A stretch of DNA of 64,000 nt from a virus. The stretch covers positions 1 to 64,000 of IMG/VR virus record IMGVR_UViG_3300038468_000190; one strand, written 5' to 3'. Shown here one piece after another: positions 2,834-61,843 of the stretch (the first letter of the stretch is position 1; each line of letters opens with the position of its first letter). Under the pieces are notes generated by a model. It saw only the letters and a list, made by a program, of their open reading frames with translations, did no database searches and was not told the origin of the DNA. Made by a program: the position numbers and the translations under genes.

Positions 2834-3219
2834 CAGCGTCCCTTCTTCAGCCACCAGGCGCCGACGCCGACGGCAAGGACGAGCATCCCGCCGACCGCGA
2901 TCAAGGTCTTCGAGACGTCGTCCTTCATCATGTCGATCTCCGCGAACGCCACCTCGAGCTCGCTCCGCATGCGGGGCATGACGACGTTGTCCATCACGTC
3001 CTTGGCGAGCTTCGGCCCGTAGAGAGTGAGTTCGTTCTCCATGTCATCGATGAGCTTACTCTCGAGCTCGTTGATTCTCGGCACGGCCGCCGCCCACGCG
3101 TCGTTGATCATCTCCTGGACCGGTAGGGCGATCTCCGTGTCGTCGCCCCAGGGCCACGGCGCGTCGACCTTGTACTTCTCGACGGGCCCGGGGCCGGCAC
3201 CTACGGGGTGGTAGCTCAC
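2833..3219 (-). CDS. Tail-anchored membrane protein, paralog of 2314..2547
   Basis: GTGA-coupled start; YHPVGAGPG...PWGDDTEIALPVQEMINDAW, helical stalk, TM + KKGR. Confidence 0.8.
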   Translation of the reverse strand: MSYHPVGAGPGPVEKYKVDAPWPWGDDTEIALPVQEMINDAWAAAVPRINELESKLIDDMENELTLYGPKLAKDVMDNVVMPRMRSELEVAFAEIDMMKDDVSKTLIAVGGMLVLAVGVGAWWLKKGR

Positions 3220-3422
3220 GAAAACTCCGTCACGCACACGGCGTCGTCTGCCGTGACTTCGCCCACGACGCCGCGCCGGTGCTCTTCGGACAGGAGCGCC
3301 TTTTCGACCGTGTCCGCACAGTCCTGCGCCGCCTGGCACTTGGCCGCGAACGCCCCGTCCGCATCGACGAGCAAGTCGACCGTGTACTCGGCGCGCACCT
3401 TGACCTTGTAGAGCGCCATCAC
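3216..3422 (-). CDS. Hypothetical protein
   Basis: Coupled to both neighbours by 4-nt overlaps. Confidence 0.65.
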   Translation of the reverse strand: MMALYKVKVRAEYTVDLLVDADGAFAAKCQAAQDCADTVEKALLSEEHRRGVVGEVTADDAVCVTEFS

Positions 3423-57516: not shown

Positions 57517-57647
57517 AAAGGAAAGCGCTCCTGTGCGTGTGCGTCCTCGAGCAGCGGACGTTCAAGAGGAAGAAGGCGCTGCCGTGCTGGCAGTGCGGGC
57601 GCGGCAGGCCGGAGCGGCTCGGCCAGATACAAAGGAGCAGAACATGA
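57513..57647 (+). CDS. Small Cys-containing protein
   Basis: MKRKALLCVC...CWQC; coupled on both sides. Confidence 0.45.
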   Translation: MKRKALLCVCVLEQRTFKRKKALPCWQCGRGRPERLGQIQRSRT

Positions 57648-57898
57648 CGCGCGGGAGCGACGAGGAAAAGCCGATCAGTTTCGAGCTGCCGGTCGACGAG
57701 CTACGGCCCGACCCGGAGACGTTGCCCGGAGGCGGCTTTCTGCGGGTCTACGTAGTCGAAGTGTGGAGCCATGGAGGTTGGTGGCCTGGTGACACCTTCA
57801 CGCCCTACGCATACAAGGCGGCAGAACAACTGCAGGCGCTGAGGGTTCGCGGAGCGAAGGCGCGCGTCGTCGCCTACGTGCGGGAGCGCGTCCAATGA
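57644..57898 (+). CDS. Hypothetical protein
   Basis: AAAGGAG RBS. Confidence 0.6.
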   Translation: MTRGSDEEKPISFELPVDELRPDPETLPGGGFLRVYVVEVWSHGGWWPGDTFTPYAYKAAEQLQALRVRGAKARVVAYVRERVQ

Positions 57899-58149
57899 GT
57901 CAGCCGAATCCCGAGGCGCGCGCGCTGGGCGAATCTAAGCTCCCACGCGGCATGTTTCGTCCGGTGTCCGTCTACGTCTCAGACGATGGCGGCGAATACC
58001 TCGTGCGTGACTACGCGGGCCAGAGTGGGCGCTTCTGCGTGATCGGGCCCTGGACGGTCGACGTGTTGGCGTCATTCCCGAAGCTCCACGAGGCACACGA
58101 CTTCATCGAGAAGCGGGCCGGCAAGGGCAGATGGTGGGTGCGCGGATGA
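57895..58149 (+). CDS. Hypothetical protein
   Basis: Coupled ORF. Confidence 0.55.
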   Translation: MSQPNPEARALGESKLPRGMFRPVSVYVSDDGGEYLVRDYAGQSGRFCVIGPWTVDVLASFPKLHEAHDFIEKRAGKGRWWVRG

Positions 58150-58421
58150 CGAAAGAGTTTCGACGGCTTGTCCGCGCCGTACTCAGCGGACGCCTCAATC
58201 GCGTGAGCCTGTCGATTCGACACAAACGCGGCGGCTTCTATGTGGAAGCTCTGGCGGACACCGGCGAGCACGTGTTCGCTTCGGCCAGCTACGCGCACGT
58301 GCATCACATCGACGACAAGCGGGTCAAGCTGTCCGACGTACTGTTGGTGAGCGCGCGGAGGATGGGCGAGGCGTTCGCGATGGCCCTGCCAGATGAACGG
58401 GATCAGAAACGGAGCGGGTGA
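58146..58421 (+). CDS. Hypothetical protein
   Basis: ATGA-coupled. Confidence 0.55.
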   Translation: MTKEFRRLVRAVLSGRLNRVSLSIRHKRGGFYVEALADTGEHVFASASYAHVHHIDDKRVKLSDVLLVSARRMGEAFAMALPDERDQKRSG

Positions 58422-58427
58422 GCGGAG

Positions 58428-58742
58428 ATGAAGCAGAGCTCTCAGCGGGTCACGAAGACGGCGATTCTCCGGAAGGTAGCTCCAGCCAGTCCTCGCGGTG
58501 AAGGCTGGGACCCGGGGGACTTTACTCGCGGGTACATTGCGGCCGTAGCGGAGTTCGCGCGTCGCCAGACGACCCCTGCTGCGGTGCTGTCAGCCGCTGG
58601 AATCACGCGCGAGGTCGCGAAGGCCGCTAGGCCTCTTCGCTTCGACATGGACGCGATTGAAGAGCATCTTGCTAGCTCAAAGACCAAGCGTGCGAAGACC
58701 CGTGCCGCCGAGATGAGACGTGCACGGACTTGGAGCAGATGA
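58428..58742 (+). CDS. Hypothetical protein
   Basis: 104 aa; DFTRGYIAAVAEF. Confidence 0.55.
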   Translation: MKQSSQRVTKTAILRKVAPASPRGEGWDPGDFTRGYIAAVAEFARRQTTPAAVLSAAGITREVAKAARPLRFDMDAIEEHLASSKTKRAKTRAAEMRRARTWSR

Positions 58743-59047
58743 TGAAGCACGTGACTCAGCCGTATACAATGTCGAACGCGCCGGTCGATTCTGTATGCCC
58801 AGAATGCCCACCGTACCGTCCGTTTCTGTGTCGACAACACCAAGAGGAGTACACGCGCAACTTGTTCGGGGATGTCGGCCCCGATGGTCGATGTCGCTGT
58901 CTTTCCCGCGAACACATCGGCACGTCAGGGTTTGTCGAATGGTGTCCGCGCTGCGGCTCCCTTGCGGTGTTCGAGGCCGGGCGATGGATATTTAAAACGC
59001 CGTCTGAGGTGAGCGGAATCAAAACCGGCGAGGGCTCGCGAAGATGA
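58742..59047 (+). CDS. Cys-rich hypothetical protein
   Basis: CPEC, CRQH, WCPRCGSL. Confidence 0.55.
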   Translation: MKHVTQPYTMSNAPVDSVCPECPPYRPFLCRQHQEEYTRNLFGDVGPDGRCRCLSREHIGTSGFVEWCPRCGSLAVFEAGRWIFKTPSEVSGIKTGEGSRR

Positions 59048-59099
59048 AGCATCCCCGAATCGGAAACCGTGCGCACCGGAGCACCAGAGAGGCGGTCTC

Positions 59100-59447
59100 T
59101 TGAGCAAGCTAAAAATGCCTGAGCGACAAACAGACGACGGGGCGGTTGCTCTGCGCCGAGTCGGTGAAAAGATCGCGGTGCACGTTACCGATGGCGGCGT
59201 CGATCAGGAGCTTGTTATGGGCGAGCACAACGCTTGGCGTATCTTCGGGATGCTCGCGGTCATGCTGCAAATCCCGCTCTCTCCGAAGGTCGGCAAGGCG
59301 ATCGTGTTCTCGCCTCCGGAAGGCGATCGAGGCCACGTTTCATTCAAGTTCGAAGTGCCGGAGCCGAAGACGCTCGGCGAGAGAGTCGCGCAACACCTCG
59401 TGGCGAAAGAGATGAAGGCCGCGCTGGGTGAGCGCGGAGGAAAGTGA
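59100..59447 (+). CDS. Hypothetical protein
   Basis: TTG start after GAGG. Confidence 0.6.
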   Translation: MSKLKMPERQTDDGAVALRRVGEKIAVHVTDGGVDQELVMGEHNAWRIFGMLAVMLQIPLSPKVGKAIVFSPPEGDRGHVSFKFEVPEPKTLGERVAQHLVAKEMKAALGERGGK

Positions 59448-59451
59448 TCCG

Positions 59452-59691
59452 ATGAGCCACGTGAAGCATCAGAAGACGGCAAGTCGCGCGAAGCGGAATC
59501 GCACTCATGAATGGTTCGATCTTCCCGTTGAACAGTGGATCGGAGTCGAGCTCGATAGGAGCCACCTGGCTCCGCACACCGTCGTCGTGGGCGGATATGC
59601 TCGCGCACGCCTGAAAAGTGCGAAAAGAGCAATCGCGCTCGCTGAAAAACTGAGGTCTGTGTTTCGCGAAGAAAGCGAGCGCGCGCCGTGA
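59452..59691 (+). CDS. Hypothetical protein
   Basis: Starts MSHVKHQK. Confidence 0.5.
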   Translation: MSHVKHQKTASRAKRNRTHEWFDLPVEQWIGVELDRSHLAPHTVVVGGYARARLKSAKRAIALAEKLRSVFREESERAP

Positions 59692-59743
59692 AGCATTCCC
59701 GAGCCACTGTCCGCGTGGAGCGGATCAAGAAAGAGGGAGTCTC

Positions 59744-60025
59744 TTGAGCGACGCGAAGCCACGGACGATCACTCTCAACGCCTACCAGCGCGCGAATCTG
59801 CTTTGGCTGATCCGCGCGTGCGGGTATCCGAGTAATCGCGATGGCAGCCCCTCCGGAGTGCCGCCGTTTACATGCGCGAACACGGGCGACTGGCTCGGTG
59901 AGGTGTACGGCCTTCTCGGCGGATTTGATGACGAGCCGGACCGCAGCCCGAATCAATCGCTGGACGGTCTGCGCAAGAGCGTCGCTTGGTGGTTCGACGA
60001 ACAGAAGACCAAGGTGCAACCGTGA
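59744..60025 (+). CDS. Hypothetical protein
   Basis: TTG start after GAGG; ends KTKVQP. Confidence 0.6.
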   Translation: MSDAKPRTITLNAYQRANLLWLIRACGYPSNRDGSPSGVPPFTCANTGDWLGEVYGLLGGFDDEPDRSPNQSLDGLRKSVAWWFDEQKTKVQP

Positions 60026-60297
60026 AGCACTTTGACGAGGCAGTCCTTTGACCTACCGCTGTGGACTTGGCTTCCCCGGTCACGAGCGGCTACCGTCGAT
60101 CACCTGCGATGGCTGTAGAGTCGTGCTCACGCTCATCTCGAACCCGCCTCCGAAGTGGTTTCTGGACGGACGCGCCAAGCCGGGCTGGCTTCTGGTGCGT
60201 CACGAGGAGCGCGACGGTCACGTCAGAATGCGCTCCGACTACTGTCCCGCGTGCAAGGTGAGCAGGCGCAAAAAGACCAAGGTGCAACCGTGAAGCA
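60005..60297 (+). repeat. Perfect 25-bp direct repeat flanking one gene
   Basis: AAGACCAAGGTGCAACCGTGAAGCA at 60005-60029 and 60273-60297. Confidence 0.9.
60048..60293 (+). CDS. Zn-finger hypothetical protein
   Basis: ITCDGC...DYCPAC; ends KTKVQP. Confidence 0.6.
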   Translation: MTYRCGLGFPGHERLPSITCDGCRVVLTLISNPPPKWFLDGRAKPGWLLVRHEERDGHVRMRSDYCPACKVSRRKKTKVQP

Positions 60298-60367
60298 GTG
60301 GGTAACGGCTGTCTGTGAGGACCGCGTCTCTGCAACCCCAAACTTTTCGAGAGGAGAGAATTGAATC

Positions 60368-60850
60368 ATGAAGATCTACGTAGCATCGTCCTGGCGGAAC
60401 CTTCTGCAACCCGGCATCGTGCACGCGCTTCGGCGTTGCGGTCACGACGTCTACGACTTCCGACACCCTAAGCCCGGCGACGACGGCTTTCGCTGGTCGG
60501 AGGTGGGCGGACCTTCGGGATACGTTCACGGCGACAAGATCCCGCCGAGCGTGTACCGTGAGATGCTCAAGCACCCGCGAGCGGCCGAGGGCTACGCGCA
60601 GGACATCGGTCACGTCCATTGGTGCGACGCCTGCGTCTACGTGCTGCCCTGCGGTCGGTCTGCGTCGTTCGAATTCGGTTACGCGATGGGGCAGGGGAAG
60701 CGCGGCTACCTCGTCGCGTTCGACGACATAGAGCCGGACCTGATGTTCCGTGAAGCGACCATCATCACGAACATGGACGAGCTGTTCGACGCTTTCGGCG
60801 AGCCAGCGGAGCACGGCGAGCTAGTTCAACGGACTGGGTCCGTGCCGTGA
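60368..60850 (+). CDS. Nucleoside 2-deoxyribosyltransferase-like / nucleotide N-glycosidase
   Basis: KIYVASSW, D..HV.WCDACVYVLPCGRSASFEFGYAMGQGK. Confidence 0.8.
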   Translation: MKIYVASSWRNLLQPGIVHALRRCGHDVYDFRHPKPGDDGFRWSEVGGPSGYVHGDKIPPSVYREMLKHPRAAEGYAQDIGHVHWCDACVYVLPCGRSASFEFGYAMGQGKRGYLVAFDDIEPDLMFREATIITNMDELFDAFGEPAEHGELVQRTGSVP

Positions 60851-61068
60851 AGCATCAGAAGGCGGTTATCCGCGCAGAGCCGGTCACGCAAACCCCAATC
60901 CCGCACGCTCCGGGATGTGGCTGTAACCCAGTGCTTCACCGGTACAAGTGCCGGCACTGCAAGCGCGTCGTCGGCTGGTGCATCGGCGCCTACGACGACA
61001 TCGAGCGCGCGGCTGGACCGATCTGCGACGATTGCGCCGCGAGCCGCGCGCATGAGGTGGCCCCATGA
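60847..61068 (+). CDS. Small Zn-finger protein
   Basis: CRHC...ICDDC. Confidence 0.55.
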   Translation: MKHQKAVIRAEPVTQTPIPHAPGCGCNPVLHRYKCRHCKRVVGWCIGAYDDIERAAGPICDDCAASRAHEVAP

Positions 61069-61247
61069 GTACCGTGAAGCGGCCGGGAACCGTAGTCAGG
61101 GAGAGAGTGGTGCCCGATGCTGTCGCAACTGACGCAACCGAAGTGGCCGCGGGCGTATACATGCCGGCGCACCAGACTCACGTAACGCTGGCGCCGTGGT
61201 TTGTTAGAGGACTCTCAGCTGTTGCTGACGACGAAAAGGAGCCGAAC

Positions 61248-61736
61248 ATGAATCCCACCGACCAAGGCCCGAAGCCCGACCCCTGGGACACGGCCGACTA
61301 CTACGAGTGCCGAGAGGGCGTCGAAGAACTCACGCACGAAACGCTCGAGGATGCGCTCGAGTCGTACCTCGACGGATGCATGGAGCCCGAGTGCGATGCG
61401 GAGGCGGTGATCCGGGCAGTCGGCATGATCGAGGTCACGGCGTATGCGCGCAAAACGGTCGATCCGGCAGACGCGAAGCGCTGGGCCGAGCGACTTGCCG
61501 ACGAGGTCAACGAGTCGTGGCGCGACGAGGAGTACGGCAATCCAGACGATGACCAGGGCGGCCCTGGCGACGACGAGTTCGTGCGAGAGGTGACCGCCGT
61601 AATCCAGCGCGCCTTCGACCGGACGGACGTGTGGCAGTGCGAACGCGTCGCCAAGCGGAAGTTTTCGACCGAAGAGCTACTCGCCATCATGAGAAAAGAG
61701 TGTCCGGAGTGGTTCCGGCCGGCGGAGAAGCCGTGA
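61248..61736 (+). CDS. Acidic phage hypothetical protein
   Basis: AAAGGAG RBS before ATG 61248; frame open from 61065. Confidence 0.7.
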   Translation: MNPTDQGPKPDPWDTADYYECREGVEELTHETLEDALESYLDGCMEPECDAEAVIRAVGMIEVTAYARKTVDPADAKRWAERLADEVNESWRDEEYGNPDDDQGGPGDDEFVREVTAVIQRAFDRTDVWQCERVAKRKFSTEELLAIMRKECPEWFRPAEKP

Positions 61737-61843
61737 AGCCGAGCGAGACGCGGTCGTTTTGGGAGAAGCTCAAGGAGGCGCCGGCGGTGGTGCTCTTCGC
61801 CCCGCTCTTCTGGATAGCGCTCAGAAAGGGCTGGGGGCACTGA
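61733..61843 (+). CDS. Small membrane peptide
   Basis: GTGA-coupled; hydrophobic segment. Confidence 0.45.
   Translation: MKPSETRSFWEKLKEAPAVVLFAPLFWIALRKGWGH

Follow-up and report, generated by a model that had tools for sequence, protein, structure and literature searches.

How phages acquire and express their fast-turning accessory genes is debated, and the proposals range from random illegitimate joins followed by selection to a 'linker' mode of modular evolution. In integrons, the attC site is an imperfect inverted repeat that forms a single-stranded hairpin and carries a GTTRRRY core. We analysed a repeated junction element in a window of 64,000 nucleotides, corresponding to the first 64 kb of one 140,124-bp record from an uncultured virus (IMG/VR record IMGVR_UViG_3300038468_000190; 66% G+C, CheckV completeness 100%); the whole record is referred to below as G000. 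A preliminary description of the window had noted the 8-mer RTGAAGCA at the junctions between accessory genes of one array (array i, Table 1), and had taken it for an integron-like site folding into hairpins. We found that the RTGAAGCA core is a start codon, which that description had missed, with a stop/start overlap, lying inside a conserved junction module of about 80-110 nt that spans about −40 to +65 of the core.

Among the closest described systems are the promoter-early stem-loops (PeSLs) of T4-type phages (Arbiol et al. 2010, PMC2839356; Comeau et al. 2014, PMC4122927). Like the PeSL, the viral module is a short composite regulatory cassette running from an upstream stop codon to a downstream Shine–Dalgarno (SD) sequence and start codon; both are repeated between small ORFan genes of hyperplastic regions, both mark the sites of indels and replacements between close relatives, and both are proposed to offer homology for modular shuffling. 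In contrast, PeSLs bear a sigma-70 promoter and a terminator stem-loop and the viral module bears neither; the module would act in translation, through the stop/start overlap, a leader micro-open reading frame (micro-ORF) and a second start. PeSL mini-circles have been demonstrated experimentally. The MIRUs (mycobacterial interspersed repetitive units; summarised in PMC12548453) are likewise short repeats between co-oriented genes, with a small ORF that overlaps the neighbouring stop and start by 4 nt and passes translation on. MIRUs are, however, chromosomal, often tandem, and regarded as mobile elements inserting at start codons, whereas in the virus each copy stands alone at a cassette boundary within an accessory array. 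The start-associated sequences (SAS/ESAS) of cluster K mycobacteriophages (Pope et al. 2011, PMC3203893) resemble the viral motif as an asymmetric conserved motif tied to starts, in one orientation and at non-structural genes only; they are common to subclusters before unrelated genes, and their function is unproven and thought to be translational. The SAS is a 13-mer that contains the SD and lies 3-7 bp upstream of the start, whereas the viral motif consists of the start codon and the five bases after it, within a longer micro-ORF module. As in the case of attC, the viral module bounds promoterless single-gene cassettes in one orientation and often overlaps the cassette stop, but its core is RTGAAGCA and not GTTRRRY, it has no imperfect hairpin, IntI-type integrase or attI, and the breakpoints fall at several positions.

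The sequence RTGAAGCA occurs 12 times in the window, compared with 2.10 ± 1.52 in 100 dinucleotide shuffles, none of which reached 12. Eight copies on the + strand (58428, 58742, 59044, 59461, 59688, 60022, 60290 and 60847) lie at consecutive gene junctions, and GTGAAGC is present at 61074 and 61733, all as reported in the preliminary description. Also in agreement with that account, the embedded TGA is the stop codon of the upstream gene at six sites (59044, 59688, 60022, 60290, 60847 and 61733); at 58428, 58742, 59461 and 61074, the upstream gene ends a few bases before the motif. In every copy the first three bases of the core, ATG or GTG, open an ORF and are followed by AAG and CAN (Met-Lys-His/Gln), and the TGA within the core mostly serves as the stop of the ORF upstream. 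When 74 core-like sites in the arrays of 10 viral contigs were taken together, an upstream ORF of at least 30 codons ended in the TGA of the core at 52, and nearly all the ORFs opening on the core ended in an ATGA, GTGA or TTGA overlap. Genome-wide, a 4-nt overlap was detected in 51 of 182 same-strand gene pairs, as judged from rough gene calls. The 4-nt overlap is a general grammar of G000, and its AAGCA extension is confined to the arrays. The junctions thus carry a 4-nt (or 1-nt) stop/start overlap with an SD-like sequence upstream, as expected of termination–reinitiation coupling; TTG starts are preceded by a strong SD, and core starts by one of variable strength.

In the module, a GGTGAGCG block is followed by purine-rich sequence containing an SD-like GGTG and then by the core; after a leader of some 19 codons come a purine-rich SD and a second start (TTG), which usually overlaps the leader stop as TTGA. 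By ungapped alignment of 48 copies, conservation was observed from about −20 to +60, the GGTGAGCG block being located further upstream, and seven bases across the start codon were invariant in about 50 copies with varying flanks. The distance from RTG to TTG was exactly 56 nt in 20 distinct leaders from 12 contigs; the 19-codon ORF was open in 18 of these relay leaders, and a purine-rich SD always preceded the TTG. Among 23 micro-ORFs of at most 30 codons, 18 ended in TTGA, ATGA or GTGA, and 12 were exactly 19 codons long. The colinear 60-bp units previously noted at 59044 and 59688, and the 16-mer common to 59461 and 60847, proved to be real. The leaders are patchworks of types. The sequences on either side of the core are freely reassorted. 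Elsewhere in the genome, the same architecture is found at 119291 (+) and 101417 (−), and a leader fused in frame is present at 100810 (−). A more distant relative (L278:9480-9515) has, on the same cassette, a 6-codon mini-leader (ATGAAAGCA ...) instead of the 19-codon leader; the two differ by an in-frame 39 nt.

The GGTGAGCG block and a 21-nt stretch upstream of the core lie in different frames or in non-coding DNA in different copies, indicating that conservation is at the nucleic-acid level. The variable sites of the leader were distributed as 8, 6 and 6 over codon positions 1, 2 and 3, without a third-position excess. This even variation, together with the in-frame stops and the 3-codon leader considered below, indicates that the peptide is not the conserved object. 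A peptide-level function of the 19-residue products was rejected, as the codon-position signature was absent.

Hairpins had been drawn by eye for several copies in the preliminary description. These were not confirmed: z-scores for folding as RNA and as single-stranded DNA (ssDNA) were positive on average, the elements folding worse than shuffled controls, and by the refutation criterion set in that description the hairpin model fails. By RNAalifold, no consensus structure was obtained for 5 or for 20 aligned leaders. Single copies folded as RNA gave z-scores from −1.5 to +2.1, with 8 of 11 positive, and 48 elements (−25 to +60) gave a mean z of +0.41 as compared with −0.74 for random windows of the same genomes (Mann-Whitney p 1.4e-5). 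When the 100 nt after each of the ten cores first described were folded as ssDNA on both strands, the mean z was +0.28 and one of 20 tests reached −2.0. For the hairpin described as the clearest, the inverted 8-mer at 60932-60939 does exist and closes the minimum-free-energy fold of 60837-60949, but the fold of this best copy has a z of −1.54, and 14 of 200 shuffles were as good; no other copy outdid shuffled controls either, as RNA or as ssDNA of either strand. The inverted 8-mer is missing from the homologous gene of a close relative, contig L276. Translation-initiation regions characteristically show low structure, and elements less structured than shuffles and random windows are what is expected of such regions. 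As to transcription signals, no sigma-70 promoter-like site (0) was found in 56-63 kb, and terminator-like sites occurred there at shuffle-level frequency, none of them in a coding-strand junction. The array reads as one operon. TTGACC was considered as a −35 box and rejected, since a matching −10 box was absent.

Comparison with relatives indicated that the arrays are hypervariable regions of the genome (arrays i and ii between L276, L277 and G000), and that cassettes travel from one array to another and from one virus to another. Over 49.8-70.2 kb, L276 and G000 are collinear at 77-91% nucleotide identity, save one block: positions 57650-61234 of the window (about 12 genes) correspond to L276 8297-9987 (1.7 kb, 6 genes, five cores), and the sole similarity inside the replaced block is one 46-nt module. 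The left break is located exactly at the ATGA overlap 57644-57647, which is followed by AGCA in L276 and by CGCG in G000, and the right break about 17 nt before ATG 61248. In L277 (85-93% identical), 5.4 kb is found where array ii has 1.95 kb. A homologue of the array i gene 57895-58149 sits in array ii of both L277 and L280. L280 also carries the cassette of genome 101724-101417 in a different array, with 88% identity over 317 nt, core to core; its right break is at core +2, and at the left end the ~16 nt that directly follow the core are less well matched. Further edges were mapped about 10 nt ahead of a core, to the SD or ATG belonging to the cassette, or some 10 nt beyond a TTGA, and some breakpoints are 10-30 nt from the core. 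Outside the arrays, indels break directly after plain RTGA or between two RTGAGC starts. Homologous cassettes were seen both with and without the module, and among the relatives compared there was no pair with the same two neighbours differing in the module alone. A clear case of such an indel between start-codon contexts outside the arrays is a 600-bp insert relative to L276 (55040-55638), bounded by two similar initiation regions (AGGAGCAA ... RTGAGC).

The view of the locus as a cassette array is thus upheld by gene gain, loss, replacement and relocation in relatives, with breakpoints at the junctions, but its analogy to attC is not supported. Breakpoints had also been predicted to fall exactly at the core; some do lie inside it or within 2 nt, but others are at +16, at the second start or ~10 nt upstream. 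This scatter of the breakpoints around the core, at junctions throughout, fits better with recombination between homologous linkers than with a fixed crossover site.

A profile built from the copies detected modules in G000 solely in three arrays (Table 1), always co-oriented with the genes. Module arrays were also found in the IMG/VR contigs G001, G002, G003 and G004, and modules in L276, L277 and L280 (contigs from NCBI, JGI and Logan) and in six further metagenome contigs; of ten metagenome matches that were followed up, four were due to chance. G000 and G001 have 8 of 226 proteins in common, at 24-39% amino acid identity, and their modules are 85-92% identical in nucleotide sequence over 46-72 nt. 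The module is far better conserved than any shared protein. Between the arrays of G000 and those of G001-G004, the only other DNA similarity is a transferase gene shared with G004. In G001 (96 kb), the 17 profile matches form one array, continuous across the record ends. The first 223 nt of G001 recur at its end (95795-96017; L265:1-223, L269) with 97% identity, and with this terminal repeat the record, classed 'linear', may be circular or terminally redundant; if so, the gene for an Xer-like recombinase spans the record ends.

Other searches for relatives were less productive. By blastn of 57.8-62.4 kb against a phage collection, zero matches were obtained. Scans of viral contigs with 15-mers gave mostly chance matches and yielded L243/G001, L209/G003 and L263/G002. 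Among 80 loci reached through the deoxyribosyltransferase-like gene of array i, none was syntenic and the motif was present only in L007/G004. The motif cluster was absent from another relative, G005, with a flanking gene of 53% amino acid identity. A scan of a genome collection for the relay pattern returned one chance match, in a deltaproteobacterial metagenome-assembled genome, and no host or prophage was found; the CRISPR spacers of G000 gave no match to the modules.

The anatomy and turnover of the junctions are direct observations, from which we infer a ribosome relay and a use of the modules as exchange homology. In our judgement it is fairly probable that the module serves both as a translational relay and as a homology tract for cassette exchange, without a dedicated hairpin-specific recombinase. 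Ribosomes finishing one cassette gene would restart on the leader and then pass to the next gene by termination–reinitiation, and such a relay would let promoterless foreign genes be expressed within one long operon. Since copies of the module separate unrelated genes and are found in different co-infecting viruses, they would also supply short homology for the insertion, deletion and replacement of cassettes and for their movement between arrays, the exchange itself being homologous or microhomology recombination filtered by selection. One portable module of ~80 nt gives stop, restart, spacer, SD and second start, which makes this an unusually clean case. If the module drives both expression and exchange, it would be a translational counterpart of the T4 PeSL and a natural 'bicistronic design' part. 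In uncultured viruses of high G+C content, where gene callers fare poorly, the module also serves to recognise arrays of accessory genes and the true starts of genes.

Several observations weigh against this proposal. Premature in-frame stops are present in two of the 20 relay leaders, and one homologous leader, in G001, has only 3 codons, indicating that translation of the full leader is dispensable in some copies. Several core starts have only a weak SD. Breakpoints at gene borders are also expected from random illegitimate recombination followed by selection. Genes for RecT, RecA, ERF, Rad52, YqaJ and resolvase/serine recombinases were searched for in the virus and none was found; as RecT, ERF, Rad52, RecA and YqaJ are all missing, homologous exchange would need host or unrecognised enzymes. 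In addition, the invariance of AAGCA after the start codon exceeds the needs of coupling or of a homology tract, and hints at a specific reader of the sequence, be it a protein, an RNA or the ribosome.

In a rival view, a recombinase would recognise RTGAAGCA as a hairpin-free recombination site and excise or insert single cassettes as at attC. Breakpoints inside or within 2 nt of the core (the left edge in L276 and the right edge in L280) and the reassortment of the two core flanks would agree with this. No recombinase had been seen in the window, and the search beyond it did reveal one tyrosine recombinase in G000, of 1279 amino acids (genome 121285-125124), encoded just downstream of array ii. 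The same synteny with array ii is kept in L277 and L278, and in G001 an Xer-like recombinase lies inside the array, positions that would also agree with this view. However, these enzymes are generic Xer-like and not IntI-type: the 1279-residue enzyme scored 33.7 bits against the integron integrase model TIGR02249 (cut-off 265), and that of G001 matched Xer models only, and weakly. No serine recombinase was found, and array i has no recombinase nearby. Furthermore, the core lacks hairpin and dyad symmetry, other breakpoints are displaced from it as described above, and indels elsewhere break at plain RTGA or RTGAGC overlaps without AAGCA. The 1279-residue enzyme has, besides, a better candidate substrate in two adjacent GACGTTA-N18-TAACGTC sites at genome 109058-109130 (109058 and 109099; L003:5058-5130). 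A 12-nt arm of this dyad site recurs inverted 2 nt before the ATG of the recombinase gene (L003:17271-17282), and the dyad site is more likely than the junction core to be the substrate or operator of the enzyme. Site-specific recombination at the core is hence very unlikely in our estimation. We likewise attach little probability to the idea that the core is read by dedicated gene-capture machinery, whether the array-adjacent Xer-like recombinases, including the 1279-residue enzyme, or an unrecognised nuclease; if true, the system would amount to an integron counterpart borne by viruses and free of hairpins, with the recombination site doubling as a translation restart signal.

Alternatively, CC-GTGAAGCA on mRNA (or DNA) could be an operator to which a factor of viral or host origin binds, turning the accessory genes on or off together, as at T4 RegA sites or as proposed for the cluster K start-associated sequences, which provide a precedent (PMC3203893). 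An operator would be consistent with the invariant bases over the start codon, with the restriction of the motif to accessory arrays in a single orientation, and with its conservation across distant viruses, and it is compatible with the relay and homology-tract proposal; but no candidate regulator was found, and an operator alone does not account for the fixed 56-nt leader and the stop/start overlaps, so that we regard it as unlikely. The junctions might also be inherited relics without present function, if a single founder gene was duplicated, together with its N-terminal codons and C-terminal tail, to build the arrays. In some cassettes the leader is indeed in frame as the first ~20 residues, and a fixed length could come from descent alone. 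However, the cassette bodies are not paralogous: no paralogy was found among the cassette proteins, and junctions 85-100% identical adjoin bodies that share nothing. The GGTGAGCG block and the 21-nt stretch, which are coding sequence in one copy but lie in another frame or in non-coding DNA in others, together with the unusually unstructured state of the elements, also speak against passive descent, which is quite unlikely. Finally, the core might be the −35-like box of an internal promoter recognised by an alternative sigma factor or a viral one; a CGTGC-like box would lie 17 nt downstream, and transcripts would begin shortly ahead of the second SD. In many copies, a CCG.G block of moderate conservation is indeed located about 17 nt after TGAAGC. 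Against such a promoter, sigma-70 matches are absent, the putative −10 box is poorly conserved, and the exact registration with stop and start codons is left unexplained; moreover, in about half of the copies the ORF started by the core is the gene itself, which a transcript from +35 would truncate. This possibility is extremely unlikely.

Table 1. Coordinates of the module arrays in the virus record and of the junction features of array i
Feature	Position	Strand	Remarks
Three module arrays	58.4-61.8 kb; 119.3-120.1 kb; 100.7-101.7 kb	+; +; −	Profile search
Hypervariable accessory-gene array i	57644..61247	+	Wholesale replacement in close relative L276
Core ATGAAGCA	58428..58435	+	Start of 104-residue gene (58428-58742)
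Core ATGAAGCA	58742..58749	+	Start of 101-residue Cys-rich gene (58742-59047)
GGTGAGCG block	59008..59015	+	32-35 nt before core; further copies at 59427 and 60257
Relay leader	59044..59103	+	Core and 19-codon micro-ORF; TGA 59101-59103 overlaps TTG 59100, start of gene 59100-59447
Core GTGAAGCA	59461..59468	+	Start of 76-residue gene (to 59691); ATG 59452 is an in-frame alternative start
Relay leader	59688..59747	+	Core overlaps upstream stop; 19-codon micro-ORF ends in TTGA; TTG 59744 opens gene 59744-60025
Core and 9-codon micro-ORF ending in TTGA	60022..60051	+	TTG 60048 opens gene 60048-60293
Core and 24-codon micro-ORF	60290..60364	+	Stop 3 nt before ATG 60368
Core GTGAAGCA overlapping transferase stop	60847..60854	+	Start of 73-residue Cys-rich gene (to 61068)
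Variant junction (GTGAAGCG at 61074)	61065..61247	+	61-codon in-frame leader before ATG 61248; nhmmer match 61055-61123
GTGAAGC stop/start overlap	61733..61739	+	Start of 36-codon ORF; outside the variable block, kept in L276

Within array i, several junctions have close counterparts elsewhere. The leader type at 58742 is common to G001 and L277, and the leader at 59044 is 86-92% identical in nucleotide sequence to copies in G001, G002 and L280. The 21 nt upstream of 59688 are also present in non-coding DNA at genome 119270-119290, and the 25 nt of 60005-60029 are identical to 60273-60297 and to G001 3219-3243. The junction at 60290 is 86% identical over 72 nt to G001 3203-3274, where the micro-ORF is the one of 3 codons. 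In L276, the homologue of the 73-residue Cys-rich gene (39% amino acid identity, E 3e-11) likewise opens on the core. The 223-codon ORF 61065-61736 is probably a conserved gene of 162 residues starting at ATG 61248, its first 61 codons being the junction leader; the protein of a relative, P0002, has 162 residues, and the homology starts just upstream of ATG 61248.

By Pfam and PHROG searches of the cassette proteins, the transferase alone was recognisable, as the product of a nucleoside deoxyribosyltransferase-like gene at 60368-60850 (phrog_12607, E 5.8e-40); unfiltered six-frame BLAST of the cassettes gave noise too high for use. The segments 60290-60310 and 60919-60939, which flank the transferase gene, form an inverted match at 17 of 21 positions, with the inverted copy located within the next gene and lacking in the L276 homologue of that gene; the match may have arisen by chance or be left over from an old inversion. 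Apart from the arrays, a 32-nt stretch of a CRISPR-like array (genome 93469-93500; L002:9469-9500) is 100% identical to L276:4501-4532, in a gene region of this sibling virus, and L276 is otherwise about 83% identical around the stretch. From its sequence, the 32-nt stretch looks like a spacer directed against a close competitor.

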